NCBI GenBank assembly: GCA_965662235.1
Contig: CBFIGY010000013.1
Span: 11,867-75,866, forward strand
Origin: an uncultured bacterium
GTDB lineage: Bacteria > SAR324 > NAC60-12
Length of the DNA: 64,000 bases
Direction of reading: 5' to 3'
The notes under the pieces are model-generated. The model was given only the letters and a program-made list of their open reading frames with translations. It did no database searches and had not been told where the DNA came from. A program made the position numbers and the translations under genes. Shown here piece after piece: positions 19,123 to 49,963 of the stretch. How positions within the stretch are numbered: position 1 is the first letter of the stretch; each line of letters starts with the position of its first letter.

Positions 19123-19884
19123 ATGAAAAAGCCTAATTTATTGCTGGTGGATGATGATACCAACATGCTGGCCTCGCTTCAGGACCTCCTCGAAGACGAC
19201 TACACCGTCTTCATGGCCCACAATGGAGAGGCGGCGCTGGAGCTCCTTCGGACCTCTGGGATGGATTTTCCGGTGGTGGTTTCGGATCAGAGCATGCCCC
19301 GTCTGCAGGGGCACGAGCTGTTCCGCATCATTCACCGCGAGTTCCCTGACACCCTGGGGATTCTGTTTACGGGTTTTCCTGAGGTGGAGAGTCTGATTCA
19401 GGCGGTCAATGAGGGGCACATCTACGGATGCCTGCGCAAGGACTTCCAGTCGCAGGACCTGGTGCAGCTGGTCAACCGGGCCTACCAGTGGCAAGAGAGC
19501 CTCCGGGGCCTCAAGGCCCAGGCGGGACTGGGTGTCACCGATCAGCTCGAGCAGGAGCTGCAGCGGGCCTGGCGGTATGGCTTGGAGTATGTGGGGGTGT
19601 TGATCGACTGGTCGGGACCCGCAGCTCCGGAACGCCTGAAGCAGCGGTTGCGCAAAAGCGATGTGGTGGGAAACCTCAATCACTCCCGGAGCCTGGTTCT
19701 GCTGACGCACACGCCACTGGACAAGGCCAAGCCGGCGCTGGACCGCCTTCTGACCACCTGCCCCGAATGCCAACTGGGCATCCTCAAGCCCAGTTCGGAG
19801 CAAGAGCCTTCGGTTGAAGCCTACCTGCTCACCCTGAGCACTGAGCCGTTGCAAACGGTCACCACAGCCCTGACTGGAGCTTAG
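19123..19884 (+). CDS. response regulator: receiver domain plus uncharacterized C-terminal domain of about 120 aa
   Basis: REC motifs: LLLVDDDTNM, VVVSDQSMP, LFTGF, CLRKDF. The C-terminal region RAWRYGLEYVGVLIDW is not recognised. Confidence 0.65.
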   Translation: MKKPNLLLVDDDTNMLASLQDLLEDDYTVFMAHNGEAALELLRTSGMDFPVVVSDQSMPRLQGHELFRIIHREFPDTLGILFTGFPEVESLIQAVNEGHIYGCLRKDFQSQDLVQLVNRAYQWQESLRGLKAQAGLGVTDQLEQELQRAWRYGLEYVGVLIDWSGPAAPERLKQRLRKSDVVGNLNHSRSLVLLTHTPLDKAKPALDRLLTTCPECQLGILKPSSEQEPSVEAYLLTLSTEPLQTVTTALTGA

Positions 19885-20240
19885 AGGTCCTCCAGGATCT
19901 GCATCAGGTCCGGGACCTTGAACGGTTTGTCCAGAAACCGCCACACGTCCAGCTCCTTGAAGAGGTGCTTGAAGCTCACCCCCTTCACATCGGCCCCACC
20001 AGACATGACAATGACCCGAAAGGTCATGCCCTGCCCTCGGACCACCCGCAGCAGTTCCTCTCCATCCATCTCTGGCATGATGTAATCCGTGATCATCAGG
20101 TCCGGATGCCCTGCCTCCAGGGCGATCAAGGCTTCCTTGCCGTTGGTCACGCCCCGCACCTCATGGTCCAGGGTTTCTAGGATGTCGATGAGAACGTCTC
20201 GGAAGACGGCGCTGTCCTCTACTACCAGTATTTTAGCCAT
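19881..20240 (-). CDS. single-domain CheY-like response regulator (last gene of the long minus-strand string)
   Basis: MAKILVVEDSAVFRDVL...LMITDYIMPEMDG...VIVMSGGAD...LDKPF. Confidence 0.8.
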   Translation of the reverse strand: MAKILVVEDSAVFRDVLIDILETLDHEVRGVTNGKEALIALEAGHPDLMITDYIMPEMDGEELLRVVRGQGMTFRVIVMSGGADVKGVSFKHLFKELDVWRFLDKPFKVPDLMQILEDL

Positions 20241-21867
20241 GCAGGGTCTCAGGTGGATCGACGGGTTGTTTGGGAAGTTGAATGCAGAAGCAGGCCCCCG
20301 GCCCCTGGTTCTCCACCGTGAGGCGTCCGCCTAGGTGCTGCTCCACAATCATCCGGGACATGTGCAGGCCAAGGCCAGTGCCCTGGCGGTCTCGTTTGGT
20401 GCTGAAGTACGGTTCAAAGATACGCTCCCTCAGGTCCTCCGGAATGCCTCCTCCGGAGTCACAGACCGTCAGCAGGAGGAGGGCCTCCTGATCCTGCAGG
20501 GTAAAGGTGAGGGTACGTTTGTCGTCTGGGATATTCTGCATCGCGTCCACCGCATTGCTGATGAGGTTCAGCAGCACCTGCAGCAGTTCGCTGGGAAGGG
20601 ACTCAATGAGTGGTGCTTCCTCAAATAGCACAGACACCTCCACCTGAAACCGCTGGAGCCGCTGTTCCATTAGGCTCAGGGCCTGGTTGCAGACCGCGAC
20701 GAGGTCTGTTGGCTGCGGCTGCTGCTCCGCCTGCAGCATCTTCCGGAAGTCCTCAATTGTCTGGGAGAGGTACTCCGTTTGAGCCTGAATCTTATCCAGT
20801 CCTTCCGCCATGCCTTCATCGGTGAGCTTCTTCAGCTGCCGTTTGAGGATCATGCCCTGCGCTAGGGTGCTGATGACGGCCAGGGGCTGACGCCACTGAT
20901 GGGCCACCATGCCGAGCACTTCTCCCATGGTCGCCAAACGTGTGGCCTGCCGGAGTTGCCGCTGCGACTCCACCAGCGCCTCATTGGACTGCTTCAGTTC
21001 GGTGTTTGATTCCTCTAGGTCGCTTTCTGCCTGCGCCCGTTCCTCCATCAGGTGCACCATGGTCTGCTGGTACACCTGCACCGCCTCCACCAGCTGCATC
21101 ACCTCAAAGGTCGTGATCTGCTTCGGATCAAAGGTCATGGGTCGCAGGTAGTGGGTTCCGTTGAGGTTCCGCCACCGCAGGCTGTGGTCCGTGATCTTAT
21201 CGGCAAGCCCCACCAGCGGACGACTGAGGCGTCGAGAGAGGTAACTCACCAGCGCCAGGGAGAAGATCAGCGACACCCCCAGCATGATCATGAGGTTGCG
21301 CATCTCTCGCTGCAGAATCTCTTGCTCAAAGTCATCATTGAACAGCACCATCAACCGTCCCAGCGGAGCACCTCGGTTGTTGAGCAGCACCGAAATCTCC
21401 AGCAGCCGCTCACCTGCCTGAAGCTCCTGGCCCTTGAGCTTCAGGCGTTCCTGCAGCTCAATCGTTTTGCTGAAGAACCCCTGTGCCCGGTACCCCTGCA
21501 GAGGAACAGAACCGCTCTGCAGCAGCCCCACTACCTTGCGACGGGGAAGGTGGTTTTCCTGAAAAAACGACGGATCGGATGCATCCAGAATAGTGCCCTC
21601 CTGATCCAGCACATACGCCAATTCCACCTGCGGCAACGCGCTCATCTCCCCGAGGGTGATGTTCAGCAACGCCCAGTTTCGCGACAGCACCGAGTCCGTG
21701 CAGTCCCGGACAAAGGTCATCACCAACCACTGGTTCAGCTCCAACTGCTGCCGCTGCTGGGCCTGAGCGGCATACCAGAGCTGGTAGGCAAACAGAAGGG
21801 CGGCTGTCAACGACAGCAGGCCTCCAAACCAAAGAAACAGCTGTGCCTGAATCCGGAGTCGCTTCAT
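20233..21867 (-). CDS. membrane sensor histidine kinase (periplasmic domain of about 170 aa, HisKA, HATPase)
   Basis: Two TM segments. H-box GMVAHQWRQPLAVIS. HATPase motif CDSGGGIPEDLRERIFEPYFSTK...GTGLGLHMS. Confidence 0.85.
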   Translation of the reverse strand: MKRLRIQAQLFLWFGGLLSLTAALLFAYQLWYAAQAQQRQQLELNQWLVMTFVRDCTDSVLSRNWALLNITLGEMSALPQVELAYVLDQEGTILDASDPSFFQENHLPRRKVVGLLQSGSVPLQGYRAQGFFSKTIELQERLKLKGQELQAGERLLEISVLLNNRGAPLGRLMVLFNDDFEQEILQREMRNLMIMLGVSLIFSLALVSYLSRRLSRPLVGLADKITDHSLRWRNLNGTHYLRPMTFDPKQITTFEVMQLVEAVQVYQQTMVHLMEERAQAESDLEESNTELKQSNEALVESQRQLRQATRLATMGEVLGMVAHQWRQPLAVISTLAQGMILKRQLKKLTDEGMAEGLDKIQAQTEYLSQTIEDFRKMLQAEQQPQPTDLVAVCNQALSLMEQRLQRFQVEVSVLFEEAPLIESLPSELLQVLLNLISNAVDAMQNIPDDKRTLTFTLQDQEALLLLTVCDSGGGIPEDLRERIFEPYFSTKRDRQGTGLGLHMSRMIVEQHLGGRLTVENQGPGACFCIQLPKQPVDPPETLHG

Positions 21868-21871
21868 GCGT

Positions 21872-22795
21872 TTACTTCACCCGGATGCTCTCAAGGTGGA
21901 AGAAGGCCTCCAGTTTATTCGGAAACAGAGCGGCCGTCGCCGTCGCTGGTTGCACAGGGAGGACAACAAACCCGCCTCCAAACGTCTCCGGAATGGGGTT
22001 GCCTTCAAGGGAGTAGGCCACCAGGACCTGACTCAGATCGGTTTCTGGAGGAAGCAACAGGGAGCTTCCCAGGGTGGAGTGCAGCTCCAGGCTCTGATTG
22101 GCGGGCCGATGGGGAACCAGATGGTGGAGCGCGACCACGCCCACATCGGTGCTTTCATTGGGAACCATCACCCCCTTGCGCACCCCCCGGGGGATGGGCA
22201 GGACACGAGCCAGCTTGGCTTGAGGCGCCCGCATCAAGCGCTCACGGCTCCACTCTTCCACAGCGTCTCCCTGCTGAACCTGAACGGCCGGCACCAGGTC
22301 CAGGTGTCCAAAGAGAACCCTCTCGACGTACCAGGTGTAAAGCCCAATGTCTCGATTCTGCTCACTGACCACCTTCAGCGGTCCCCCCCGACGCGGAGAG
22401 ATGGGCTTACCGTTCTGCTCAAACGCGAGCAGGGCGCCCGCCTGGATCAGGTCTTCTAGGGGCTCATGGGTGCTGTAACCGTCATTGGCCAGCATGGTCA
22501 CGTCACCCTCAAATTCAGTCAGGCCGAGCAATTCCGGGAGCTTGGCAATGGGGATGCCGCCAAACTGCTGGGGGCCATCTTTGGCAAAAATGGGATCGGT
22601 GATCTCAATGGTCGTGAGGTACGGACGCAGGTCCGCTTCCTCAACCACCACCTCCTGAACCTCTAGGTTGGCGTTGCGGGCATAAAGACGCAGCTCAAAG
22701 TGGACGGCCTGCGCTGGCGTGGCCATCAGGGCCAGGCCGAACAGGCTCAGCAGCAGGAGGCTCCGGACAAAGCCGGATCGGTGTAACGGATGCAT
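21872..22795 (-). CDS. secreted protein with oxidoreductase-molybdopterin-binding-like fold but no obvious Mo-ligating Cys; tightly coupled upstream of the HK at 20233-21867
   Basis: Signal peptide. GIPIAKLPELLGL...VTMLANDGYSTHEPLEDL...ALLAFEQNGKPISPRRGGPLKVVSE is collinear with the YuiH/YedY/sulfite-oxidase Mo-domain. Only 4 nt separate its stop from the HK start. Confidence 0.5.
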   Translation of the reverse strand: MHPLHRSGFVRSLLLLSLFGLALMATPAQAVHFELRLYARNANLEVQEVVVEEADLRPYLTTIEITDPIFAKDGPQQFGGIPIAKLPELLGLTEFEGDVTMLANDGYSTHEPLEDLIQAGALLAFEQNGKPISPRRGGPLKVVSEQNRDIGLYTWYVERVLFGHLDLVPAVQVQQGDAVEEWSRERLMRAPQAKLARVLPIPRGVRKGVMVPNESTDVGVVALHHLVPHRPANQSLELHSTLGSSLLLPPETDLSQVLVAYSLEGNPIPETFGGGFVVLPVQPATATAALFPNKLEAFFHLESIRVK

Positions 22796-22807: not shown

Positions 22808-24301
22808 TTAAGGGGAAACAACAGGAAAGATGATCTGTACCAAAGTGCCGTGGTTCTCCTTGCTCTGGAGATGAAAGACGCCATCTTGGTCGGCAATGAT
22901 GCTCCGGCAAATGGAAAGCCCGAGTCCGGTGCCCTTGCCGGCCTCTTTGGTGGTAAAGAAGGGGTCTTCAATCCGCTGAAGGAGCTTTTTCGGAATTCCG
23001 GGGCCTGTGTCTTCCACTTCTAGGTAAACCTGATCCTCGTTGCGGTACACCCGGAGGATGAGTTGTTTGGGGCCGTTGAAGTGCTGGAAGGCGTCTCGGG
23101 CGTTGCTGACCACCTCCACCAGCACATGCTGCACCTGCCCAGGAATGCAGCGGATGGTGCACGGCTCATCGGTGTACTCTTCGAGCAACTCAATGCCTCG
23201 TCCCACAAACTGCTGACGGTGCAGGTCTGAAGTGGCTCGGGCGAGGTTCCGGGGGTCTTCTTCCACAAAGTCGGTCTGATTGGAGACCTGAGCAAAGTGC
23301 CGCAGTTGCTGAATGACGACGGCAATCCGGTCCACGTGTTCGTCAATGCGTTCCAGCGAGCCCCGGACCTTCTCAGGGCGTTTTTCCAGCTGCCCCATGG
23401 CCCCACTGACCGAGAGCTTGATGATGCCGAGCGGGTTGTTGATTTCATGGGCCAGTCCGGTGGCAATGCTTCCCAGCGACGAGAGCTTGGTGCTCTGCAC
23501 CAGCTGACGCTGCAGGGCCACGCTGTCTCGCTGGTGCCGGACCAAGCGGGCGTGATTTTCCAGACGGGCCAGCATCTCTTCCCGGGAGAAGGGCTTGACG
23601 AGGTAGTCGTTGGCGCCGGCCTTGAGGGCCTCAATGACCACCGAGTACTCTCCTGCTGCCGTGAGGATGATCACCGGCAGTTCCGGACGGTCGAGGGGTC
23701 CTCGAATGGTCCGGCACAGCTCAATGCCGTCCATCTTCGGCATCACAAAGTCCGTCACCACTAGGTCCACCGGGTGCTGCTCAAGCAGGGCAATCGCCTC
23801 TTCCCCGTTGGCAGCATCCAGCACCCGGGCGCCGCGCTTGCGGAGGATGCGGGCCAGGATGGTTCGGATGGAACGGGAATCGTCCACCACCAGGATGTTG
23901 ATGTCCTCCAACGAGCTTTCATCTGCCAGCAGCTCCTCCAGGTACTCCTTGAGGCTTCCTGGGGCAAAGGGCTTGCGGATGAACTCCACGGCGCCAGCGT
24001 GGAAGGCCCGGGCGTTCAGGTTGGGCTCCTCTTTGCTGGAAATGACGATGATCGGAATGTGCGAACACTGCGGGTAGTAGCGGATGCGCTGGATGGTTGT
24101 GATGCCGTCAATCTCCGGCATCTCCACGTCCATGGTGATGGCGTCGGGCTCCAGCTCAATCGCCAGGCTCATGGCCTCGCGACCACTCTCAGCCTCATAA
24201 ATTTCCGCATTGGCCAGGCTCGAGAGTTCCTCGCGGATGATCTTCCGGGAGCTGGGGCTGTCATCAACAATCAAAATTTTCAGGGGGACCATCTTTCTCA
24301 T
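22808..24301 (-). CDS. hybrid histidine kinase with two N-terminal receiver domains (REC-REC-HisKA-HATPase)
   Basis: REC1: ILIVDDSPS...ITMDVEMPEIDG...KPF. REC2: ILVVDDSRS...VVTDFVMPKMDG...LVKPF. H-box GLAHEINNPLGII. HATPase EVEDTGPGIP...GTGLGLSI. Confidence 0.85.
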   Translation of the reverse strand: MRKMVPLKILIVDDSPSSRKIIREELSSLANAEIYEAESGREAMSLAIELEPDAITMDVEMPEIDGITTIQRIRYYPQCSHIPIIVISSKEEPNLNARAFHAGAVEFIRKPFAPGSLKEYLEELLADESSLEDINILVVDDSRSIRTILARILRKRGARVLDAANGEEAIALLEQHPVDLVVTDFVMPKMDGIELCRTIRGPLDRPELPVIILTAAGEYSVVIEALKAGANDYLVKPFSREEMLARLENHARLVRHQRDSVALQRQLVQSTKLSSLGSIATGLAHEINNPLGIIKLSVSGAMGQLEKRPEKVRGSLERIDEHVDRIAVVIQQLRHFAQVSNQTDFVEEDPRNLARATSDLHRQQFVGRGIELLEEYTDEPCTIRCIPGQVQHVLVEVVSNARDAFQHFNGPKQLILRVYRNEDQVYLEVEDTGPGIPKKLLQRIEDPFFTTKEAGKGTGLGLSICRSIIADQDGVFHLQSKENHGTLVQIIFPVVSP

Positions 24302-24355: not shown

Positions 24356-25594
24356 TCAGTCCCAGAGCGTTTGCTTGGCAAAAAAATCAAGAATCTGGTT
24401 GAGCAGGGTCTGCTCCTCCGGAGCAACGTAAAGGAACTCAATGCCGAACTCCCCCCGCCCTTCCACGGAACGGTTCCAGATGGTGGTGCCAATCACCTCC
24501 AGCGGAGCCAGATCGGGAATCACCGGACGTCCCTGGTCCCAGTACACCGTCATCCGCACCGTCACTCCCACCGGAAGCGACTGCTCCGACTTGACCCGTG
24601 CCCCGGAGCGGGACAGGTCCAGCAGCTCTCCTGTGGAAAGGACCGTTTGCTTCTGGGTGCTCCGGCGCTCCTCAAACGTCACCGGGACCAGGACGTTGTA
24701 GCGCTCGGCTCGGCTGGTCCGGGCATTGAAGAAACGCTCTTCTGCTTCACAGAGCACCTCCTCGGAGTGCATGCCCTCCGGAGGGTTCTCCCGGAAGTAG
24801 TTGCAGCGCTTGATGTAGTTGATCGTCACCGGATCTTCAGGAAAACGCTCCAGACACTCCCGAAACGGGTGCAGCGCCTCCTCAAAGAGCCACGCCTTGT
24901 ACAGGGCCATTCCCTGAAAGAGCAGCATCTGCGTCTCACGCTTCACGGCCTGCAGCGCCTCAGAGTCGGTGGCAAACACCTCATACACATTCACCAGCCG
25001 CTGCCGGCCCCGAACCCGGAGCGTGTCCACCTCCCGGACCGCCTGGGCCTGCGTCTTCAGGGCGGCATGCGTGTGATGAGAAATGAGGATCCGGGAGCCA
25101 AACGACTTGGTCAGGCTTTCCAGACGTGCAGCCAAGTTGACGGCATCTCCCACCACCGAAAGGTGCTTGCCGCGCAGGTTCCCCACCCAGCGGTGTCCGA
25201 CAATCACAGGACCGGTGTTGATGCCAATGCCCGCCCGGAACTGCCGAGCCCGAGGGCGGGCGTTGAACTCATCCAACCGTTGCTGCATGGCCACTGCCGC
25301 TTGGACGGCATGGTCAGCGCTGAACTTTCCCTCAAAGAGGGCCATGAGGGCGTCGCCCATGAACTTGTCCACGACACCATGATGCCGCTCGACCTCGAGG
25401 ACCAGGGCATCAAAGATCGCATTGAGCATGCGGAACCCCGTCTTCGGGGTGGTGGACTCGACATGCGTGGTGTAGCCACGGATGTCCAGAAACAGAATGG
25501 ACAGCTTCATCTCGCGCAGAGGAGCGTTGTCTTCGCTCAGGGCGTCGGTGCTGGCAATCCAATGGAGTCCTCGTTTCCTAGAAGAATTCGACAT
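24356..25594 (-). CDS. class III adenylate/guanylate cyclase + TPR-like segment + C-terminal PilZ-like domain (paralogue of 16214-17938 without REC); start uncertain
   Basis: CHD: LSILFLDIRGYT...VVDKFMGDALMALFEG...VGDAVNLAARLE. C-terminus: DLSRSGARV (DxSxxG), beta-rich GIEFLYVAPEEQ. Confidence 0.7.
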   Translation of the reverse strand: MSNSSRKRGLHWIASTDALSEDNAPLREMKLSILFLDIRGYTTHVESTTPKTGFRMLNAIFDALVLEVERHHGVVDKFMGDALMALFEGKFSADHAVQAAVAMQQRLDEFNARPRARQFRAGIGINTGPVIVGHRWVGNLRGKHLSVVGDAVNLAARLESLTKSFGSRILISHHTHAALKTQAQAVREVDTLRVRGRQRLVNVYEVFATDSEALQAVKRETQMLLFQGMALYKAWLFEEALHPFRECLERFPEDPVTINYIKRCNYFRENPPEGMHSEEVLCEAEERFFNARTSRAERYNVLVPVTFEERRSTQKQTVLSTGELLDLSRSGARVKSEQSLPVGVTVRMTVYWDQGRPVIPDLAPLEVIGTTIWNRSVEGRGEFGIEFLYVAPEEQTLLNQILDFFAKQTLWD

Positions 25595-27378: not shown

Positions 27379-27999
27379 TCAATCCCACAAATCGACATCC
27401 ACAGGACGCTGCGGACGTTGCTGTTTCTCTCGTTCACGCTGAACCTCCCGGATGAAGCTCCGGTCGCGCTCAACGACTTCAGACACTTCCGTACGCTGGA
27501 CCTTCCGGACGTACACGGAATAGTCCCGCGAGTCAAAGTAAATGACGCGGCCAAACACCCCCTCTAGGTCGGCCGCCACCACCGGAATGCGGTCCTCTTG
27601 AAGGAAGTTCACCACAAAGCGGGCGTTCCGGCCCCCAACGTCCAGCATGGGCGCCGCGTGTTGGTTGATCTGAAGCACCGCCGCGCCGCCAAAGACCTTG
27701 GCCTTGAGGTGCTTGCGCTGGGCGCCCAGTTTCATCATCCGGTTGATGAGCAGTTCCATGGCGTTGATGCCGTATCGTCCAGCATCACTCTTGAGCATGA
27801 GGTCCTGACTGCTGTACGACTGCGTGCTCAGCAGAAAGTGGTTCATGCCCACAATGTGATTGACCGGATCGTACAAACAGGCCGAGACACACGACCCCAG
27901 CAAGGTGATGAGCACCACGTCTTTTTCAGACGCATGATACTCACCCGGCTGTACGCGTATCTTCATGCGACTGTCGAACAGTTTCGGAGCTCTTGACAT
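27379..27999 (-). CDS. cheD: chemoreceptor glutamine deamidase CheD
   Basis: ITLLGSCVSACLYD (CheD catalytic Cys motif) ...VGMNHFLL...KVFGGAAVL. Confidence 0.8.
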   Translation of the reverse strand: MSRAPKLFDSRMKIRVQPGEYHASEKDVVLITLLGSCVSACLYDPVNHIVGMNHFLLSTQSYSSQDLMLKSDAGRYGINAMELLINRMMKLGAQRKHLKAKVFGGAAVLQINQHAAPMLDVGGRNARFVVNFLQEDRIPVVAADLEGVFGRVIYFDSRDYSVYVRKVQRTEVSEVVERDRSFIREVQREREKQQRPQRPVDVDLWD

Positions 28000-33984: not shown

Positions 33985-34071
33985 GAGAATGCTGTTTCGT
34001 CCGTTTCAGGGAAGGGGGAAAAGGAAAGAGGAGGGAAGCTCCCTCCCCCAGTCAAGGTGCTAGAGGAAGCC

Positions 34072-42088: not shown

Positions 42089-42441
42089 TACGCTGCTCCA
42101 CTCGATTTGAAGTCCCAGATGGCCTGGTCTTCAGTTTCATGAATCTTGATGAACCGGGAGAACCCGCAAATGTCGAGGATCTCGTGCACCTGCTCTCCCA
42201 CCTGCACCAGCGCAAAGCCACGGCCCTGGGCCTTGAGCTGCTTGTAGCAGTCGGCCACCAGGCCAATGCCACTGGAGGTGATGTAGTTCAGCTCACTGCA
42301 GTCGAGGATCAGGCCGGTGCTCTCGGCATCCTCCAGGAAGGTGTTCAGCTCCTCCCGGGTTTCCCGGGAGGCTTCGAGCCCCAGCTGTTCCCCCAGGGTC
42401 ACAACGTGCACAGAGTCAACGGTTCGGTGTTTCAACGGCAT
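42088..42441 (-). CDS. STAS-domain anti-sigma-factor antagonist-like protein, immediately downstream of the second cheA
   Basis: VHVVTLGEQLGLEASRETREEL...LILDCSELNYITSSGIGLVADCY...ALVQVGEQVHEILDICGF (SpoIIAA-like, with the conserved Ser region). Confidence 0.75.
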   Translation of the reverse strand: MPLKHRTVDSVHVVTLGEQLGLEASRETREELNTFLEDAESTGLILDCSELNYITSSGIGLVADCYKQLKAQGRGFALVQVGEQVHEILDICGFSRFIKIHETEDQAIWDFKSSGAA

Positions 42442-42454: not shown

Positions 42455-44614
42455 TTAAAGTAACAGGCTCAGGTCTTCACCCGTGAGGACCAGTAAGGGG
42501 GCTCCCGTGCCCATAACGATGCACCCTTCAAAGCCTCCCTCTGCCAGGAAGGGGTGCAGGAAGGGACGGATGACGCCCTGTGTGAACTTGAGGATCCGGT
42601 CAGCATGGAAGGCCACCTGCTGCCGACGGGAATCTTCGAGCACCAGGATCACCCCCGTCTGAGGCACCGGAGGCGCCGATCCCAGACCCAATCGGGCCTG
42701 CAGGTCCAGGTAGTGGCAGGTGATGCCCCGGTGCTTGAACACCCCCTGCTCTGGAACCGTGGGGTGCAGCGACAGGTCCACAATCTCCCGGATGACGTCG
42801 TAGCGGATGGCCACGGTTCGGCCGGCCAGTTCCACCACCAGCACCTTGCGGGACTGCAGTCCCAGCCGGAGGGGGCAGAACAGGGTGATCTCAGATCCCT
42901 TGCCCAGCTCAGAGGTAATGCGCACGTCACCACCATGGTGCCGGATGGTGCTGGCCACCACATCCATGCCAACTCCCCGTCCTGACACGTTGGTTACCTT
43001 CTCCGCCATGGAGAATCCAGGCGCCATCAGCAGCTCAAACGCCTCCTCATCGGTGTACTCCGTGTTGGGCTGCGCCAGTCCACGCTCCAGGGCCTTGCTC
43101 AGCACCCGCTGAACGTCAATGCCGTTTCCGTCATCAGAGACCGTGAGGCGCAGCATCTCCGGCTCCAGCCGAGCTGCCACCCGCAGGTTCCCCACTTCTG
43201 ACTTGCCCCGCTGCTTACGGACGTCCGGGGTTTCAATGCCATGGTCAAGGGAGTTCCGGATCAGGTGCACAAACGGGTCACCCAGCAGATCAATGACCGA
43301 GCGGTCCACCTCCAGGTGCTCCCCGCGGAGCTCCAGGGAAACCCGCTTCCCGAGGTCCCGCTCCAGCTGCCGAAGCATCCGGGGCAGGCGGTCAAACAGT
43401 TCACTCAGGCGAGAGGCCCGCAGCTGCTGCAACGACTCCTGCAGGCCACCAAACCGCTGCTGCACCCGCTGCACCGCGCCTCGCATCTCCATCGACATCC
43501 GAGGGTCCAGGCTCTGACGCGTCTCCTGTTCCAAGGCGTCCAGGTGGTTCAACTCCGTCACCACCTCTTCAGCATGGCGGGTGAACTCATTGAGGTCGTC
43601 CATGCTGATGCGCATCATCTCCCGACGCGTGGCCTGTGCCTCGTTGGTGGCCGCAGGAGCGCTCGGTGCTGCCGGGGTCCGAGCCGAGCCAATCCCGAGC
43701 ATCTCCAGAGCAAACTCGCTGGCGTCATGAGACCGGACGTTGCACTTGCGTTCCAGGCCCTCCACCCAAAACTGTTTCCAGAACTGCTCCACCATGTCCG
43801 GAACCAGACGGGCCAAGGCGCTGAGCGAATCCCAGTCCAGCACCGGCTCCGGAGCATCCGGGTAGAGCAGCTTGTCCATCTGGAGCACCAGCGGCTCGTA
43901 GCGTTCAATGCCATCCGGAGGCAGCCCGGCTCCTGCAGCAATCAGCTCCTCCAGTCCAATCAGCACCTCCCGGACTGCGGGGGTGATGTCCTCGCCCTCC
44001 GACGTAAGCACCGACTCCAGCAGCACGCTCCGGACGACCACATCCACCTCCAGGGACTGCTTCTTGGTGAAGTACGTTTCCAGCGTGTCTAGGGCATCCA
44101 GCACCTCCTGAGGCGGAGGCGCCGCGGCGCTGCGGGCCCGTCCCGACTCGGCCTGTTCCACCAGGTTCCGGAGGCGGTCGGCCAGGGGCTCCACCTTCTC
44201 CTCCGAAGGCTCTTCCTTGTTGAGGTTCTGGAGGAAGCGCTCAAAGCGGTCATCCAGCTTCATCTCCTGCTGCCGCATGCGCTCCAGCGCATCCTGAAGC
44301 AGGTCCACGCCCTCCAGCACCCGAGACTGTTCACTGTCCCGTAGCGCCCGGCTCTGGCCCTTGAGCTGCTGCAGGTAGCTTTCAAAGACGTGCGCAAAGG
44401 ACTGCAGGGCCATGAGGTCGAAGAAACCAGCGGTTCCCTTGACGGTGTGGACCCAGCGGAAGATCGCCGCCAGGGTCTCAATCGGCTGTTCCTCGAGTCG
44501 CTCCAGATCCTCCTGAATCAGCTCCAGACCATTGAGGGATTCCTCCACAAAGGCCTGAATGATCTCCGGATCAAAGAAGGATGCGCTGATGTCGGCAGAG
44601 ACGGTTTCGGTCAT
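42455..44614 (-). CDS. cheA: second chemotaxis histidine kinase CheA (start at MTETVSADIS; the upstream part of the ORF is Gly/Pro-rich and non-coding-looking)
   Basis: HPt: FRWVHTVKGTAGFFDL. HATPase: FVHLIRNSLDHGIE...SGRGVGMDVVASTIRHHGG. C-terminal CheW domain. Its start overlaps the stop of the upstream gene by 4 nt. Confidence 0.85.
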   Translation of the reverse strand: MTETVSADISASFFDPEIIQAFVEESLNGLELIQEDLERLEEQPIETLAAIFRWVHTVKGTAGFFDLMALQSFAHVFESYLQQLKGQSRALRDSEQSRVLEGVDLLQDALERMRQQEMKLDDRFERFLQNLNKEEPSEEKVEPLADRLRNLVEQAESGRARSAAAPPPQEVLDALDTLETYFTKKQSLEVDVVVRSVLLESVLTSEGEDITPAVREVLIGLEELIAAGAGLPPDGIERYEPLVLQMDKLLYPDAPEPVLDWDSLSALARLVPDMVEQFWKQFWVEGLERKCNVRSHDASEFALEMLGIGSARTPAAPSAPAATNEAQATRREMMRISMDDLNEFTRHAEEVVTELNHLDALEQETRQSLDPRMSMEMRGAVQRVQQRFGGLQESLQQLRASRLSELFDRLPRMLRQLERDLGKRVSLELRGEHLEVDRSVIDLLGDPFVHLIRNSLDHGIETPDVRKQRGKSEVGNLRVAARLEPEMLRLTVSDDGNGIDVQRVLSKALERGLAQPNTEYTDEEAFELLMAPGFSMAEKVTNVSGRGVGMDVVASTIRHHGGDVRITSELGKGSEITLFCPLRLGLQSRKVLVVELAGRTVAIRYDVIREIVDLSLHPTVPEQGVFKHRGITCHYLDLQARLGLGSAPPVPQTGVILVLEDSRRQQVAFHADRILKFTQGVIRPFLHPFLAEGGFEGCIVMGTGAPLLVLTGEDLSLLL

Positions 44615-45045
44615 GTGCTCCCCTTTTGCACCTCCCGAGCTAGTTGGAGCCAGTAGTTCCGGCGTCGGAGCATGGTCTGGATGGCCTGCCCAAAGGGCTC
44701 CCAGTCCAGTGGAAAGAAAAACAGGTAGTCCGCGCCCTGTCGGTTGCTCCGGGCCACCGCCTCCAGGTCCCGCTCCCGGGCCAGGAAGATGAGGCTGGTG
44801 GAAGGCGCCAGCTGCCGCGCCCGCTTCTTCCACTCGAAGCCATCGAAGCTGCTGCTGTTGATCTCAATGATCAGCAGGTGGCAGGGGTTGCGGCTGAGGA
44901 AGCTCATGAAGCCCTTGGGCGTGTGGTGGTAGATCACCTCAAAGTCCTGCTTGAAGAAGGACTTCAGCTCCTCATTGGTCTCGGTTTCGGCCAGGGTGGC
45001 CACCACAAACGAGGGTTGAGGGGCGTCACTCATGCGTCCTCCCAT
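44611..45045 (-). CDS. pseudo-receiver (degenerate REC-fold) protein
   Basis: Beta-alpha pattern of a receiver (FVVATLAE ... HLLIIEINSS ... SLIFLA ... DYLFFFPLDWEPF), but the acidic pocket, phospho-Asp and Lys are replaced. Confidence 0.5.
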   Translation of the reverse strand: MGGRMSDAPQPSFVVATLAETETNEELKSFFKQDFEVIYHHTPKGFMSFLSRNPCHLLIIEINSSSFDGFEWKKRARQLAPSTSLIFLARERDLEAVARSNRQGADYLFFFPLDWEPFGQAIQTMLRRRNYWLQLAREVQKGST

Positions 45046-45911
45046 CGCTTGGTCATGGTGATGCGGTTGCCGCTGTCGCTCCAGTCCACCGAACTCATGA
45101 TGCCCTTGATGAGCAGCAGCCCCCGCCCATGCGTCTGGGTCGGACTGGCGTTGACGTCACCGCGGTAGGCAGAGGGGTCAAATCCGGGGCCTTCATCTTC
45201 CAAGGAGACCCGAAGCATCTCAGCATCCATGTCCACCTGAATCCGGACCTGCCGGTCCTTGTAGTCAGGATCCTCTGAGCGGGTTCCCACCATGGCTTCA
45301 AACCGTTCCCACGACTGGTCCTTGAGGGAGGACGGGAGTTCCAGGTTCCCGTGGATGATGGAGTTCGTGAGCGACTCCTGCAGGCAGAGGTCAATGAGGT
45401 GCACCGGGACCTGGTTGCTTTCACAGAGGGGACGGTAGAGGGACCGGAGCGTCTGCACCGTGGCGGCAATCAGGTCCGGACGACTGGGCACCAGCAGGCG
45501 CAGCTTGAGGTTGCTGACGGCCAACAGCTCCGTCTGGCGGCTGCTTTCCTGCTGCCGCACCTGCAGGCGCTCCAACGCTGACTGGAGGACATGGAAGGCA
45601 AAGGGCTTGAGGATCAGGTCCACGGCGCCGAGCTTCAGGGCTTCCACAGAAGTCTGCACGTCACCGTGCCCGGTGATGAGCAGCGTCGGAGTGTTCATGC
45701 GCGACCGGACCATGCGTCGCAGCAGCTCCATGCCGTCCATGACGGGCATGCGGATGTCTGAAAGCACGGCGTCAAAAGGAGGCCCAGCTTTCAGCAGCGC
45801 CAGGGCTTCTTCGCCATTGCCTGCAGACGCCACTTCATAATCGGCATCCTCCAGCAACTCTACCAATGAGTCCCGCCATCCGGGCTCATCGTCCACCACC
45901 AGCAGTCTCAT
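45030..45911 (-). CDS. response-regulator receiver fused to an RsbW/RsbT-like GHKL serine kinase (anti-sigma-factor-type HATPase_c_2)
   Basis: REC: MRLLVVDDEPGWR...VLSDIRMPVMDG...LLITGHGD...LILKPF. C-terminus: LCLQESLTNSIIHGNLE...DEGPGFDP...GRGLLLIKGIMSSVDW. Confidence 0.7.
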   Translation of the reverse strand: MRLLVVDDEPGWRDSLVELLEDADYEVASAGNGEEALALLKAGPPFDAVLSDIRMPVMDGMELLRRMVRSRMNTPTLLITGHGDVQTSVEALKLGAVDLILKPFAFHVLQSALERLQVRQQESSRQTELLAVSNLKLRLLVPSRPDLIAATVQTLRSLYRPLCESNQVPVHLIDLCLQESLTNSIIHGNLELPSSLKDQSWERFEAMVGTRSEDPDYKDRQVRIQVDMDAEMLRVSLEDEGPGFDPSAYRGDVNASPTQTHGRGLLLIKGIMSSVDWSDSGNRITMTKRWEDA

Positions 45912-47110
45912 GAGACCCTCTCCTCCTGAGTCGCATGCACCTCAATGCCCATCAAGGTTGCATCGTCATCAAAGCGGTCCTTCCCCGCAAAGTTCAGCAC
46001 CGACTGCATGATCTTTTGAGTCATGTTTGAAAGGTTCTCCTCCCGGAGGCTAGAGAGGGTCTTGCGCAAACGGGGCTCCCCAAACAGCTCGGAGCTGCGG
46101 CTCTTGCCCCAGGCCGGATTGGTCTCCAGCAGCGCATCCGTGTAGATCAGCACCCGGTCCCCGGGACTCAGCTGCACCTTTCCCTCGCCATACTGCACGA
46201 GGTCACTGGGCAGCACCCCCAGCACCACTCCATCGGTGGAGAGGCTGGTGATCTCCTCGGTCCCCTGACGGATCAGGTACGCCGGAGGATGCCCCGCACA
46301 GGTGTAGGTCAATTCCTGCGACTGCTCATCAAAGATCATGTAAAAGAGGCTCGCGAAGCGTCCCGGAGGCATGTAGTCATTGAGGGTGTCGTTGATCCGG
46401 GAAATCGCTTCCTGTGTGGAACTAAGCCCGCCTCCCACCTGCCGGAAGGTGAGGCGCAGCATCATGGCAATCATCGAAGCCGACAAGCCGTGCCCGGTGA
46501 CATCCGCCACCACCATGCCAATGAGGTGATCGTTGAGGCGCAGAACGTCATAGAAGTCTCCACCCACCTCATCCATGGGAATGAACTCCGTCTGAATCTG
46601 CAGGCAGGTAGAAACATCTAGGCTATGTGGAAGCAGAAGCTCCTGAGCCACCCGGGCCTGTTCCAGGTCGTAGCGACTCTGCTTCTGCAACGAAATCAGG
46701 TGCTCATTGAGCATCTCCACCATCTCTAGGTGCCCGTTCATCCGCCGGTTTTCCTGCAGCAGGGAGTGGTGCTCCAAGAAGAGCGCAATCAGTTCATCAG
46801 CAAACTGCTCCGGATGCTCCTGCAGCAGCGAGGTCTGCAACAGCCCCGGCTGACTTCCCTCCGAGAGGGCACCAATCGCAACCGCCAGTGTTTCCGGGAA
46901 CTTTTGCTGAAAACGCTGCAGCTCCTCCGCGTTGGTTCCAATGATCAGCGTCGGAGAAGCCCCTCCTGGACGAAGTGCCCCCAGGGCCTGTTCCACCTCC
47001 TGATAGAGTTCAACCGTGAAGCACCGGCCCAGGTGACGCTCCAGCGTCGCCAGTTCGGGAGTGGAGCCAAGGAGGAGGATCAGGTTGGGTTTGATGGTCT
47101 GTGGACTCAT
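45908..47110 (-). CDS. PP2C-family serine phosphatase (SpoIIE/RsbU-like) with degenerate N-terminal receiver-like domain
   Basis: GGDFYDVLRLNDHLIGMVVADVTGHGLSASMIAMM...CAGHPPAYLIR...GDRVLIYTDALLE. The N-terminal 120 aa are REC-like (LILLLGSTPE...TLIIGTNA) without the conserved Asp. Confidence 0.8.
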   Translation of the reverse strand: MSPQTIKPNLILLLGSTPELATLERHLGRCFTVELYQEVEQALGALRPGGASPTLIIGTNAEELQRFQQKFPETLAVAIGALSEGSQPGLLQTSLLQEHPEQFADELIALFLEHHSLLQENRRMNGHLEMVEMLNEHLISLQKQSRYDLEQARVAQELLLPHSLDVSTCLQIQTEFIPMDEVGGDFYDVLRLNDHLIGMVVADVTGHGLSASMIAMMLRLTFRQVGGGLSSTQEAISRINDTLNDYMPPGRFASLFYMIFDEQSQELTYTCAGHPPAYLIRQGTEEITSLSTDGVVLGVLPSDLVQYGEGKVQLSPGDRVLIYTDALLETNPAWGKSRSSELFGEPRLRKTLSSLREENLSNMTQKIMQSVLNFAGKDRFDDDATLMGIEVHATQEERVS

Positions 47111-47113
47111 GAG

Positions 47114-47458
47114 TCAGCTGGCAATGCGGTCGAGGGCAACGTCAAGGGAGGGGGTGACCTGGAGGAAGCGGTCGATCTGCGTCAACGCGATCGTCTGCCG
47201 GACCACTTCATTGGGGCCACTGAGGAAGAAGGGAACCCGCTGGTTGAGGGAGAGTTTTGCCCCATACAGGATGATGCCAATGCCCGAGGAGTCGAGAAAG
47301 TCCAGGCTTTCCAGGTCCAGGACCAGGCCCGAAGGGGTCTCCTTCAGCAACGACTCCAGCTGCTGCTTGAGCTTGGACACATTGGAACTCTCCAAGGTTC
47401 CGGACAGGGTGACCACCTGGACGGATCCGTTCTTTGTAACATCAATCTGTAGGAACAC
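47114..47458 (-). CDS. STAS-domain anti-sigma-factor antagonist (first gene of the operon, directly upstream of the PP2C phosphatase)
   Basis: VQVVTLSGTLESSNVSKLKQQL...LVLDLESLDFLDSSGIGIILYGAKL (SpoIIAA-like with the phosphorylatable Ser region DSSGIG). Confidence 0.8.
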   Translation of the reverse strand: MFLQIDVTKNGSVQVVTLSGTLESSNVSKLKQQLESLLKETPSGLVLDLESLDFLDSSGIGIILYGAKLSLNQRVPFFLSGPNEVVRQTIALTQIDRFLQVTPSLDVALDRIAS

Positions 47459-47667
47459 GGCTGCTTCTTCTTTAATGATCGAAAAAGATGCAATTTATTT
47501 TTATTTTTTGATTTTTTCCCTGAATTTCAGGAAAGAGCGCTATCATACGTATCCAATTTATTATCTCAAGATGATATTTCTCAGGAAGGAGACGGAAGCG
47601 GACGGGTCAGGACCCTTGTGGTGGGGAAAGCATTGGGGGCTTTTTCAGGGGAGGCTGGCAACGGTGG
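47459..47667. promoter_or_regulatory. AT-rich intergenic promoter region for the STAS-PP2C-kinase-che string; contains perfect palindrome CCTGAA-T-TTCAGG at 47519-47531
   Basis: About 209 bp, much lower in GC than the surrounding sequence (ttttattttttgattttttccctgaatttcaggaaagag). It is the only sizeable gap in the 30-kb minus-strand gene string. Confidence 0.35.
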
Positions 47668-49518
47668 TTAGATTTCATAGTGCATCCCCTGAGCTTGCAG
47701 GGTCACCACAAAGCAGGCCCCTGACGGCATTGGCTCGCAGCGGAGCTCTCCTCCTTGCTCCCGCATCAGCCCGTGGGCAATCGCAAGCCCCATCCCCCGG
47801 CCCTTCCCCAGGGGCTTGGTGGTAAAAAAGGGCTCAAAGACCCGTTCCTTCAGAGCCTCCGGGACACCTGGCCCTGAATCCTGCACCCGGACCTCTAGCA
47901 TTTCTGACCCTGAAGACGCTTTTCGCACCTGGACCCTGAGGTCAATCTGCCGCCGAGGCTGCTGCCGCATGGCATCAATGGCATTGCTCAGAAGGTTCAC
48001 AAACACCTGCTCCATTTTACTGGGCACTCCCAAGGCCCACGGCAGGTCAGCAGGGCACTCTTTTTTCAGCTGAACCTGATGCGTCAGCAGCCGCGACCGC
48101 AGGACGTTCTCGGAGCGCTGCAGCACCTCCTTCAGGGAAAACACGGAGTTGCCCTGACCTTCTTGAAAGCGCCCAAACGTCCGGATGTCTTCAATGATCT
48201 GGGAGATGTGCTTGCACGCCTGCTGCGCTCGCTCTAGGCTCCGGACCAGACGACTCTTGCGGATGTCCGCCCGCTCCAGTTCCAGAAGAACCTGATCCAG
48301 CGTCAAGTAAACCTGGGCCAGGGGGCTGTTGATTTCATGGGCCATGGCCGTGGTGATTTCTCCAAGGGAGATCAGCCGAGCCTGCTTCTGGACCACTTGA
48401 CTGAGCTCCTGACTCCGGGTGCTCCAGGTGTTCAGGACACGCAGCCCCCACCCAACCAGCAGCATCAGCGCCAACCACGCCCCGGCCGCACTCCAGGCCA
48501 GTTGAGTCCGCAGCGTGGTGTTCTGTTGCTGAAAGGCCTCTGCGGAAAGAAAGGTCACAAAGAACCAAGGGGCCTCGGTGCGACGCTCCAGCTGCAGGAC
48601 GCCTGCTTGCTGCCGTGCGGTCCGGATGGGCGCATAAGGCGTGGAGCAAAACAACCCCTCTTCATTGGCGCCACACTGCGGTGTCGCGGAACGGACCGTC
48701 TCCCAGGTGAGCGGATGCTCCGCCTGCAGGCGATCCCCCCAGTCCCCGGCCTCCAGGAACCCCCACTGCTTCTCCGAGCCAAACCCAACAAAGAGGCGTC
48801 CCTGTGTATCCAGCAGCAGCTCCTGTGTTTCCTGAGAGGCACTCACCCGAGTCAAGCTGTTGAGCAGGCCGCTGCCCAGGTAGTTCATCACCACCATTCC
48901 TGCACGAACGCCAGCAGGATCAAACACAGGCGCCACCACCCGGATCACGGGCTTGTAGGGTTCTTCCACCACCCCATTCTCCTGGTTCAGGTCCAACTCT
49001 GAAAAGAGCACCGTCCCTCTCGGAAGCAGCTGCCCCTCCTGAAAGTACTCCCGCTGTGACTTGTCCTGCAGTTCCTCCGTGGGCACCACTCGGGGAGCCC
49101 CAGCGGAAAAGTTGACGCGGCTCACTTCCTGCCCGGTGTTGCTGAGCAACCGGATCTGATCGTACCCCTGTGACGCTTCTCCAAAGTACAGAAACTCTTC
49201 GGCAATCCGGGCACTTGCTCCTTCTTGATTGAGCAGACGCTCCGTGTTCACCCGGACGTGCCTGACTTCATCGAGCAGGCGCAGCATCCGTTCCTCCCAA
49301 ACCTCCTTGGCGGCAATGTGAAACTGCTGACGGTTCTGCCAGTTCTCCCTCTGGAGCTGCAGGATCGACTGGTCTTCGAGAAACCACACCAGCCCGGAGC
49401 CTGCTGTGATCAGCAACAGCAGCAGCCAACCACGGACCTGAAGCCAAGACGTCACGGCCTGGATGAGTGGCGTCACGCCCCTGTTCCTCTCGGTAACGGT
49501 TTCCAAACAGCTCGGCAA
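47668..49518 (-). CDS. membrane sensor histidine kinase with a large periplasmic (Cache-like) domain
   Basis: TM, then a periplasmic region of about 290 aa with YKPVIRVVAPVFDPAGVRAGMVVMNYLGSGL, then TM, H-box TTAMAHEINSPLAQV and HATPase VQDSGPGVPEALKERVFEPFFTTK...GRGMGLAI. Confidence 0.85.
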   Translation of the reverse strand: MPSCLETVTERNRGVTPLIQAVTSWLQVRGWLLLLLITAGSGLVWFLEDQSILQLQRENWQNRQQFHIAAKEVWEERMLRLLDEVRHVRVNTERLLNQEGASARIAEEFLYFGEASQGYDQIRLLSNTGQEVSRVNFSAGAPRVVPTEELQDKSQREYFQEGQLLPRGTVLFSELDLNQENGVVEEPYKPVIRVVAPVFDPAGVRAGMVVMNYLGSGLLNSLTRVSASQETQELLLDTQGRLFVGFGSEKQWGFLEAGDWGDRLQAEHPLTWETVRSATPQCGANEEGLFCSTPYAPIRTARQQAGVLQLERRTEAPWFFVTFLSAEAFQQQNTTLRTQLAWSAAGAWLALMLLVGWGLRVLNTWSTRSQELSQVVQKQARLISLGEITTAMAHEINSPLAQVYLTLDQVLLELERADIRKSRLVRSLERAQQACKHISQIIEDIRTFGRFQEGQGNSVFSLKEVLQRSENVLRSRLLTHQVQLKKECPADLPWALGVPSKMEQVFVNLLSNAIDAMRQQPRRQIDLRVQVRKASSGSEMLEVRVQDSGPGVPEALKERVFEPFFTTKPLGKGRGMGLAIAHGLMREQGGELRCEPMPSGACFVVTLQAQGMHYEI

Positions 49519-49567
49519 CCTCCCTGGCCCTTTCGAGGGGGAAGCAGCTGTCCTTTTGAAGGGGGAA

Positions 49568-49963
49568 TCAAGCGCGCGCCTGCAAGGCGGCCTGGAGGGT
49601 TTCTGTCAGCACATTGAAGCCGACCGGTTTACGGAGCAGGGCAAAGGCTCCCAGACTGAGGCAGTGTTGCTCAACGCGAGCATCTAAGTGCCCGGAGTGG
49701 ATGACAACCCGAGAGGCCTTCACGGTCTCGGGCGTAAGGGATTCCAGCACTTCAATCCCGGTGAGGACCGGCATGTTGATGTCCAACAGAACCAGCTGAG
49801 GAGGCTGCTGCTGACGGAGGCACTGCAACGCTTCTCCCCCATCCTGGGCCTCAATCACCTGATAGTCCTCTTCTAGGAGCATCACCATGGCTTCCCTGAG
49901 GTCGTGATTGTCTTCGGCGATCAGAAGCGTCGCCTTGGAATTCAGTGAGTCAGGATCGGTCAT
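49568..49963 (-). CDS. single-domain response regulator
   Basis: ATLLIAEDNHDLRE...LVLLDINMPVLTG...VVIHSGH...LRKPV. Confidence 0.8.
   Translation of the reverse strand: MTDPDSLNSKATLLIAEDNHDLREAMVMLLEEDYQVIEAQDGGEALQCLRQQQPPQLVLLDINMPVLTGIEVLESLTPETVKASRVVIHSGHLDARVEQHCLSLGAFALLRKPVGFNVLTETLQAALQARA

Follow-up and report, generated by a model that had tools for sequence, protein, structure and literature searches.

The window analysed here, 64,000 nt of contig CBFIGY010000013.1 from an uncultured SAR324 bacterium (GCA_965662235.1), contains an unbroken chain of 26 minus-strand genes, g01 to g26, that runs from 49963 down to 19881 and brings chemosensory, two-component and partner-switch genes together (Table 1). 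The chain spans 30,083 nt and is 98% coding according to the open reading frame list and junction table, which bear out the co-directional run described in an earlier note on this DNA, although that note had counted 27 genes. Neighbouring genes overlap or lie at most 87 nt apart at 24 of the 25 junctions, and the 209 nt at 47459-47667 are, as had been claimed, the sole sizeable gap. The four 4-nt ATGA overlaps named before (45908/45911, 44611/44614, 40616/40619 and 37115/37118) are all present and are joined by a fifth at 30580/30583, and 1-nt overlaps occur at 42088 and 39322. A plus-strand operon does converge on the run from the other side, sharing 4 nt with the last minus-strand gene.

Pfam supports most of the domain content that had been read from the letters: a response regulator and histidine kinase (HK) pair, three STAS genes, a PP2C phosphatase, an RsbW-like kinase, two CheA genes (CheA-1, g07, and CheA-2, g12), CheY, CheW, a methyl-accepting chemotaxis protein (MCP), CheR, CheB, CheD, a nucleotidyl cyclase joined to a PilZ domain (cyclase-PilZ), a spermidine-synthase fusion and an Oxidored_molyb-like protein. 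Some entries needed amending. The RsbW-like kinase g05 also has an N-terminal receiver (REC), and a 144-aa pseudo-receiver gene, g06, had gone unlisted. We rejected the description of g10 as a tandem CheW, as one CheW domain is detectable and the C-terminal half of 144 aa matches nothing. Two REC-REC-HK hybrids had been listed; g23 is one, but g18 has neither a HisKA match nor an H-box histidine. Finally, g21 and g09 had both been called cryptic MCP-like proteins, a description that is firm for g21 and weak for g09.

Conserved core order shown by synteny

The nearest genome, a metagenome-assembled genome labelled Deltaproteobacteria bacterium (GCA_038150265.1, contig JAYOTF010000014.1; ~88% identity), retains the whole 36-kb island, including a flanking cytochrome c gene and the convergent operon, with per-gene identities of 72-98% for g03-g23 and g26, 65% for g24 and 76% for g25. 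A more distant locus, L036 on the 34.8-kb contig k127_27777 (ENA ERZ930064), has a 13-gene core in the same order as g08, g11-g15, g17, g19-g23 and g26 of the window: STAS, CheY, CheA, STAS_2, an MCP with a four-helix-bundle (4HB) sensor, CheW, CheR, CheB, CheD, a 599-aa protein without a Pfam match, cyclase-PilZ, REC-REC-HK and REC. Amino acid identities there are mostly 54-78% (~60%), with lower values for the final REC (46%) and the homologue of g21 (31%), and g23, at 65%, is directly followed by the single REC gene. Missing from the L036 core are 6 of the 26 genes, namely g09, g10, g16, g18, g24 and g25. A third lineage, L041 (GCA_041294345.1), keeps CheD, a g21-like gene (35%) and the cyclase-PilZ (42%), and the order cheD-g21-g22 is common to L036, L041 and L034 of the close relative.

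Synteny thus shows that the order of the core is conserved, and the earlier view that this is not a coincidental cluster holds: 13 genes keep their order at ~60% identity, and the 36-kb island persists in the ~88% relative. When gene neighbourhoods are compared across relatives, the core co-occurs, but CheA-1, CheA-2 and the cyclase operon are also seen separately, and CheA-2 relatives sit in plain che clusters at many loci. We read the run as a lineage-specific mosaic chemosensory supercluster, an F8-like core with added modules rather than one indivisible pathway, and give this reading a probability of roughly 0.6.

The length of the run is by itself not extraordinary, as about one 26-gene co-directional run is expected per genome if co-directionality is assumed, as we do, to be ~0.7 per junction. 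Its content is another matter: signalling-type products are encoded by 25 of the 26 genes, between housekeeping flanks, and this is clearly non-random. Assembly of a signalling island by chance or horizontal transfer, from parts that are functionally unrelated, would fit the lineage-specific inserts g09, g16, g18, g24 and g25 and the status of the convergent operon as a paralogous duplicate. We nevertheless consider such an origin very improbable, given that GC content is uniform across run and flanks (0.57-0.64), that core order survives at the divergence of L036, that 18 loci link this CheA type with a gene of the g21 family, and that many junctions show translational coupling.

Table 1. Features of the minus-strand run, the operon facing it, and comparison loci
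Feature	Position	Strand	Basis
g01, single-domain response regulator	49568..49963	-	Pfam Response_reg E 1.7e-21
g02, membrane histidine kinase, Cache-type periplasmic sensor	47668..49518	-	Pfam HK_sensor_dom_bact, HisKA, HATPase_c
Sigma-70-like promoter candidate TTGAGA-16-TATGAT, upstream of g03 in the 209-nt gap	47542..47569	-	10/12 match
g03, STAS, anti-sigma-antagonist type, DSSG phospho-serine motif	47114..47458	-	Pfam STAS E 1.5e-18
g04, PP2C/SpoIIE-type Ser phosphatase	45908..47110	-	Pfam SpoIIE E 8.6e-44
g05, intact receiver + RsbW-like GHKL Ser kinase/anti-sigma-type domain	45030..45911	-	Response_reg E 2.2e-29
g06, pseudo-receiver, 144 aa, CheA-1 partner	44611..45045	-	weak Response_reg match
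g07, CheA-1: Hpt, P3-like region, ATPase, CheW-like domain	42455..44614	-	Pfam
g08, STAS, TSSG motif	42088..42441	-	Pfam STAS E 2.4e-19; orthologue directly precedes cheY in L036
g09, all-helical orphan, 490 aa	40616..42088	-	only itself and an 88% orthologue found
g10, CheW domain (residues 16-143) + 144-aa C-terminal extension	39738..40619	-	Pfam CheW
g11, CheY	39322..39684	-	Pfam; 98% identity in relative, 78% in L036
g12, CheA-2, complete CheA, core kinase	37115..39322	-	Pfam Hpt, H-kinase_dim, HATPase_c, CheW
g13, STAS_2, 96 aa, DVAG	36828..37118	-	Pfam STAS_2 E 2e-12; ATGA overlap with g12; kept in L036
g14, transmembrane MCP: double 4HB sensor, 34H signalling domain, C-terminal DFERF	34652..36784	-	Pfam
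g15, CheW	34072..34581	-	Pfam CheW E 1.9e-36
Stem-loop + T-rich tail between cheW (g15) and g16	34027..34049	-	10 pairs, -16.8 kcal/mol
g16, fused MFS-like membrane + spermidine-synthase-like domain	31444..33984	-	NCBIfam NF037959, 117 bits (cut-off 40)
g17, CheR	30580..31419	-	Pfam
g18, REC-REC-ATPase paralogue of g23, lineage-specific	29117..30583	-	Pfam two Response_reg + HATPase_c, no HisKA
g19, CheB	28021..29100	-	Pfam
g20, CheD	27379..27999	-	Pfam
g21, soluble double-hairpin MCP-like protein, 597 aa	25578..27371	-	HMMER family, profile-structure matches, AlphaFold2 (AF2)
g22, class III nucleotidyl cyclase-PilZ, candidate effector	24356..25594	-	Pfam
g23, REC-REC-HisKA-HATPase hybrid kinase, both receivers intact	22808..24301	-	Pfam
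g24, secreted 307-aa protein, partial Oxidored_molyb-like domain	21872..22795	-	Pfam 40.5 bits (cut-off 24), residues 77-143 only
g25, membrane histidine kinase, lineage-specific	20233..21867	-	Pfam HisKA, HATPase_c
g26, single-domain response regulator, last gene	19881..20240	-	Pfam
Convergent operon HAMP-PAS-HK, REC-cyclase-TPR-PilZ, REC-HK, REC-X	13575..19884	+	Pfam
CheA-1-type clusters	L001 8651-14860; L002 7301-12154; L003 8561-14419; L042 1-2362
g21-family examples	L008 7480-9486; L010 1987-3828; L014 7670-9499; L017 834-2615; L030 7491-9269; others

Class of the core and the g21 family

The F8-like label rests on receptor class and gene content; CheA-2, for which we found 27 related loci, gives no more than a generic CheA match in NCBIfam. 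Compared with the 36H receptors Tar and Tap of E. coli, g14 and its L036 orthologue carry two symmetric 7-residue deletions around the hairpin tip, and are therefore of the 34H type. The receptor ends in DFERF (DFERY in L036) behind a linker of ~70 aa, and the beta-subdomain of g17 aligns gap-free with that of the pentapeptide-dependent E. coli CheR. Receptors of the 34H type have been tied to F8 systems (PMC7184735, PMC9855816, PMC11253619), and g14 is such a receptor, with two transmembrane (TM) segments and encoded within the cluster. In P. syringae, a pentapeptide-bearing 34H receptor is linked to the CheR of its F8 cluster (PMC11253619; for the pentapeptide in F8 systems also PMC7184735), a pairing that g14 and g17 repeat. 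The F8 cluster che2 of S. oneidensis consists of two MCPs, CheY, CheA, an anti-sigma antagonist, CheW, CheR, CheD and CheB (PMC9855816), and the same set is present here (cheY, cheA, STAS, mcp, cheW, cheR, cheD, cheB and a second MCP-type gene). To this extent the core corresponds to a known, named system: its order matches that of che2, the sole difference being the extra MCP-like gene, which follows cheD in the window and lies ahead of cheY there.

The likeness extends to the wider F8 class (S. oneidensis che2 so_2317-so_2327, P. syringae pv. tomato cluster II and M. alcaliphilum MEALZ_2939-2942), with which the core shares the two-TM 34H receptor, the pentapeptide, the CheA/W/Y/R/D/B set, a lone STAS gene, an extra MCP-type gene and, probably, a function off the main motility system. 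The additions in this lineage go beyond that class: cyclase-PilZ, REC-REC-HK, a second CheA module, PP2C, a REC-RsbW-like kinase and a fusion of major facilitator superfamily (MFS) and spermidine-synthase domains. According to Ortega et al. 2020 (PMC7184735), the delta/epsilon F7 and all F8 systems form one clade, and the ancestral 'stage 1' F7 cluster is laid out as STAS-cheY-cheA-...-cheB-mcpA-STAS-Ser phosphatase, so that finding STAS and PP2C genes next to che clusters of this kind is not new. The window resembles this layout in having the STAS gene g08 before cheY-cheA (g09-g10 lie between, whereas the genes are adjacent in L036) and g03 with the PP2C gene g04 upstream. It departs from it in having a TM 4HB 34H MCP in place of an Aer2-like soluble PAS/36H receptor, and one cheW afterwards in place of two after cheA.

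As the earlier note had argued, this is not a canonical flagellar chemotaxis locus, with no flagellar or mot genes in the flanks and with kinases, a cyclase and STAS proteins as the apparent outputs. The core is probably an F8-like, 34H-receptor system of the 'alternative cellular function' (ACF) kind, governing second messengers and protein switches and not swimming. It could instead serve ordinary motility, with genes elsewhere supplying the flagellar or pilus motor on which CheY g11 acts and with the neighbours as unrelated passengers, a view for which the complete CheA/W/Y/R/B/D set, the transmembrane MCP and the many CheA-2 relatives in plain che clusters speak, as does the finding that F8 components modulate swimming in P. 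syringae (PMC11253619). We think this unlikely, as no flagellar, mot or pil genes occur within the 64-kb window, the STAS genes bracket cheY-cheA, and the cyclase-PilZ, REC-REC-HK and REC genes hold their place after cheD-g21 in L036, with cheD-g21-cyclase also in L041.

Among these candidate output genes, g22 has the invariant catalytic residues D, D, K, N and R; residues of this Lys/Ser-Thr type suggest ATP as the substrate. Its PilZ domain keeps DxSxxG. The two cyclase-PilZ paralogues of the window, 24356-25594 (-) and 16214-17938 (+), differ in that the plus-strand copy has canonical RxxxR and DxSxxG motifs together with REC and TPR domains, while the minus-strand lineage has S or H instead of the first Arg of RxxxR. 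For g23 and g26, the closest described arrangement is that of R. centenum Che3, an ACF-class system in which CheA3 phosphorylates REC1 of CheS3, and CheS3 in turn CheY3 (PMC3868531). Here too a che cluster encodes a REC-REC-HK and a single receiver, adjacent in L036, and the output of Che3 is other than motility. In contrast to g23, which has HisKA and two intact receivers, CheS3 has PAS, an HWE kinase and one functional receiver; CheA-2 is not a CheA-REC hybrid, and the likeness is one of gene content. By analogy, g13 would be CheS-like. CheS of Sinorhizobium meliloti and Agrobacterium is a single-STAS protein that binds CheA (PMC12654446), and g13, compared with it by description, is a STAS_2 protein without the phosphorylatable Ser; its gene is translationally coupled to cheA-2 and is kept in L036. 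The position differs, g13 being downstream of cheA and CheS upstream of cheY1, and CheS comes from alpha-proteobacterial systems of a different class.

The gene g21, for which we take the ATG at 27371 as the start in agreement with the 597-aa orthologue called in the relative, matches nothing above threshold in Pfam or NCBIfam, but belongs to a large family. HMMER finds 663 clusters at E <=1e-3 among 1.84 billion representatives, nearly all of ~600 aa and aligned end-to-end. In an alignment of 41 sequences, Q236, H238, D239, Q243, Y543 and R549 are invariant, and 32 of the 41 members match MCPsignal while 5 match CheZ (E 0.1 or better). The family profile matches the T. maritima MCP 2ch7 at E 8e-23 through the C-terminal hairpin, and AF2, given the family alignment, predicts a pair of long hairpins made of helices, their tips at about residues 135 and 392 (predicted local distance difference test, pLDDT, 84.5). 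The motif LQ[FY]HDI[TI][RK]Q (in g21 LQFHDITRQQxEHV, containing HDxxRQ) and a DN[IVL]ELF C-terminus are kept throughout the family; the MCP tip motifs are degenerate at both tips of g21 and in Bacteroidales. Over the fetched loci, the profile scores members in CheA-2-like loci at 106-327 bits and ordinary MCPs at 25-72. Members adjoin CheA-2-type genes in 18 of 26 related loci; in 14 CheA-2-like loci (Desulfovibrionales, Bacteroidota, Melioribacteraceae, Acidobacteria) the member is directly upstream of cheY-cheA, while in the window's own group it is downstream of cheD instead.

Judged from profile matches and the predicted fold, g21 appears to be a DosM-like double-signalling-domain receptor scaffold specific to this CheA type. 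DosM (VC1403) is a double-signalling-domain receptor of the cytoplasmic F9 arrays of V. cholerae (PMC7534058), and the g21 family likewise has two MCP-signalling-like hairpins in one soluble chain. Its context, however, is the CheA-2/34H type in all loci and not an F9 cluster with triple CheW, and it differs from DosM in its length of ~600 aa, unequal arms, invariant HDxxRQ, DN[IVL]ELF C-terminus and the degenerate tips of the window's member. The matches to CheZ invite a bolder reading, in which the family would be an undescribed signature of F8-like systems, a soluble scaffold inserted in the array, with a CheZ-like DxxxQ site that acts as a built-in CheY~P phosphatase, the system being wired in this lineage to cyclase-PilZ and partner switch via two CheA proteins. 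The class would otherwise have no CheZ, CheC or CheX, and family members are annotated 'hypothetical' or 'MCP'. With hhalign, D239 and Q243 of the family fall exactly on D143 and Q147 of E. coli CheZ, and both are invariant in 41 + 18 sequences, but the match is local (E 0.15, probability 0.4%). The N-terminal halves of relatives, taken alone, score 40.3 bits against MCPsignal (cut-off 34.6) and reach at best 27.7 bits against CheZ, below its gathering score of 30.7. As the similarity is sub-threshold, the CheZ-like site is only a lead, and we regard this bolder reading as speculative and on the whole doubtful.

Modules outside the core

Judged against L036 and the other loci, the lineage additions are the g06/g07/g09/g10 module, the split partner switch g03-g05, g16, g18 and g24-g25. 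In the partner switch, phosphorylatable Ser residues are present in the STAS proteins g03 (DSSG) and g08 (TSSG) and absent from g13 (DVAG). The PP2C and GHKL kinase appear intact from their metal-binding and N/G-box motifs: g04 has GDFYD, DVTGHG and DDDAT, and g05, which overlaps it by 4 nt, matches HATPase_c_2 at 60.4 bits (cut-off 27.4). The 190-aa N-terminal region of g04 has no Pfam match, and the nearest NCBIfam models, RssB(Pseudomonas) and SiaA, both score below cut-off. A receiver-controlled PP2C or RsbW-type kinase acting on a STAS protein is also the arrangement of CrsR/CrsA of S. oneidensis che1 and HsbR/HsbA of P. aeruginosa. CrsR and HsbR are single REC-PP2C-HATPase proteins, whereas PP2C (g04) and REC-HATPase_c_2 (g05) are separate genes here, no RpoS, FlgM or other target is identifiable in the window, and the adjacent kinase is a rare CheA and not an Hpt protein.

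That CheA, CheA-1, has only 5 full-length relatives among 5.8e9 proteins, and a search of the JGI metagenomes with its alignment added one further, short locus. It is 34% identical to CheA-2 over the C-terminal half. We considered and rejected the idea that it lacks a dimerisation domain: the NCBIfam CheA model aligns from residue 322 and through that region, so the domain has diverged and was not lost. Its neighbour g06 belongs to a pseudo-receiver family in which the acceptor Asp57 is replaced by Glu and Lys109 is lost (4 of 4 aligned members), and a g06 homologue stands directly upstream of a CheA-1-like gene in L001, L003 and L042, the order differing in L002. In those other lineages, the clusters that hold CheA-1 have neither STAS nor PP2C genes and encode, along with further che genes, an ordinary second CheA, an Hsp70/MreB-like protein and a ParA-like ATPase. 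In L001 and L002 a HEAT-repeat protein accompanies the second CheA. A literature search for che clusters with ParA, Hsp70 and HEAT proteins gave nothing specific, and a paper on Geobacter che clusters (PMC2577667) makes no mention of STAS, HEAT or Hsp70 components.

The remaining members of this module are poorly conserved or isolated. Within the central block g03-g23, g10 has the lowest identity to its counterpart in the relative, 72%. For g09, hhalign places FLAMNAALETSRK on the MCP tip at E 0.0048 and probability 7%; the protein has no sequence match in PDB, and an AF2 model from the single sequence, all helix with a pLDDT of 58.7, is of low confidence and uninformative. It is possibly a decayed MCP hairpin, and these values make the MCP-like reading a weak one.

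Of the inserts further downstream, g16 is absent from L036 and all other CheA-2-like loci. The second, g18, is 36% identical to g23 and absent in L036. It has SALRTLSSS where g23 has HEINNPLG and a weak HATPase_c_2 match of 24.6 bits, which would suit a pseudo-kinase or else a kinase whose substrate is not a histidine. Conservation within the block is lowest for g24 (65% in the relative), which is also absent in L036; its product may serve the kinase g25 as a periplasmic co-sensor instead of acting as an enzyme. The sensor half of g25 itself has no match.

At the head of the run, g01 and g02 are 47% and 35% identical to the genes at the same position in the close relative, where the other genes are 65-98% identical; the pair therefore lies outside the co-evolving block and appears to be a separate two-component unit that evolves independently of the rest. 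Compared with L033 2181-4388, the pair (47668-49963) looks like a sensor replaced in situ or diverged very fast. At the other end, the convergent operon is paralogous to g22/g23 (36% identity between g22 and its cyclase) and is kept in the relative. In L039, an operon with a comparable set of genes is found by itself, with no che genes, which marks the convergent operon, on gene content, as a separable module. The C-terminal 130 aa of its REC-X protein (19486-19881, +) give a faint partial GGDEF match (E 0.071) and may be a decayed diguanylate cyclase.

Beyond these genes, both flanks are housekeeping in character, one with MinCD, PrkA, PurH, a betaine ABC transporter and RibD, the other with cytochrome c, branched-chain amino-acid permeases and KdtA. 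The PrkA-type AAA Ser kinase gene (5097-7319, +) and a Gig2-like/TetR pair beside a DUF6279 protein (54280-56855, +) appear unrelated to the signalling island.

Transcription, wiring and meaning

The run is probably transcribed in at least three units, g01-g02, g03-g15 and g16-g26. A promoter-like site precedes g01 at 50206-50179. Both hexamers of the candidate in the 209-nt gap are kept in the relative (TTGAAA-16-TATGAT), in a spacer that is otherwise poorly conserved (72% identical). The stem-loop between g15 and g16 is a possible internal terminator or attenuator; in the relative, a 12-bp hairpin of unrelated sequence occupies the same place (L034 1549-1577; -22.8 kcal/mol, z -6.7, no T-run). 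Read-through past the hairpin would perhaps produce the third unit, and this second boundary is uncertain. A scan of the whole window with Rfam yields neither a riboswitch nor any other RNA.

We propose that g14 senses a periplasmic ligand and, with g21 and CheW, would control CheA-2, adaptation being provided by CheR (tethered to the DFERF tail), CheB and CheD. Phosphorylated CheA-2 would pass its phosphoryl group to CheY, CheB and the receivers of g23, and g23 to g26, as in the relay from CheA3 through CheS3 to CheY3 (PMC3868531), while g13 may bind CheA-2 as CheS does (PMC12654446). As effector, the cyclase-PilZ g22 would couple the output to cyclic AMP and cyclic di-GMP. In the second module, phosphorylated CheA-1 would act on the receiver of g05 and so set its Ser-kinase activity on the STAS proteins g03 and g08, with the PP2C g04 opposing g05, as in HsbR/HsbA and CrsR/CrsA.

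Taken to its limit, such wiring becomes the single integrated pathway of the earlier note, in which all 26 genes form one super-operon, and two CheA cores, partner switch, hybrid kinases and cyclase one circuit. The dense packing, module borders included, and the retention of the full order in the ~88% relative favour this view, as does the more distant lineage, where a single contig of 34.8 kb carries both the core and a CheA-1-like gene. Yet ~17 kb separate the two there, the CheA-1-like gene being on the opposite strand and within another che cluster, and at 88% identity the relatives are too similar for a shared gene order to demonstrate selection. Together with the genes missing from the L036 core, the independent evolution of g01 and g02, the occurrence of the modules apart elsewhere, the conserved promoter-like site in the 209-nt gap and the hairpin after cheW, this makes one indivisible pathway improbable, and the super-operon claim is supported only in part.

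Several observations weigh against the mosaic supercluster that we prefer. Tight spacing and ATGA overlaps span module borders (g05/g06/g07 and g08/g09/g10), which argues for joint translation of core and added modules, and hence for their possible functional integration here. The partner switch, too, may belong to the conserved core, as the comparison with L036 starts at its STAS gene and such genes could lie in the 7.3 kb upstream of it, between L036 and L002. Because delta-proteobacterial F7 and F8 form one clade, 'F8-like' may really mean 'F7/F8 clade'. The hairpin of the window has an unremarkable z-score of -0.43 and that of the relative lacks a T-run, so termination after cheW is uncertain. 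The RxxxR motif of the g22 PilZ domain is degenerate (SRAER). No sigma factor or other STAS target was found in the window, and a scan of the flanks gave neither a sigma nor an anti-sigma gene; the target may have its gene elsewhere, or may be the cyclase or a kinase. Lastly, all phosphotransfer routes proposed above are drawn from gene adjacency and analogy.

F8 systems have been catalogued and their arrays imaged, and to our knowledge no output has been established for them. A 2026 survey called them experimentally unexplored in Vibrionales. Earlier publications already describe F7/F8 che clusters with adjoining STAS and Ser-phosphatase genes (PMC7184735) as well as REC-REC-HK relays (PMC3868531), and the locus does not overturn current concepts of chemosensory diversity. 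What appears new is the combination of modules, the conserved output set of cyclase-PilZ and REC-REC-HK, the joining of a rare CheA-1/pseudo-receiver pair to a partner switch, and the g21 family as a signature of this CheA type. The locus is a natural example of co-translation that takes in two CheA kinases together with a split partner switch, and the g21 family provides a marker gene for the class and a candidate for its missing phosphatase. For the class as a whole, the conserved cyclase-PilZ, REC-REC kinase and lone receiver give a concrete hypothesis of output, in which a phosphorelay would lead to second messengers.

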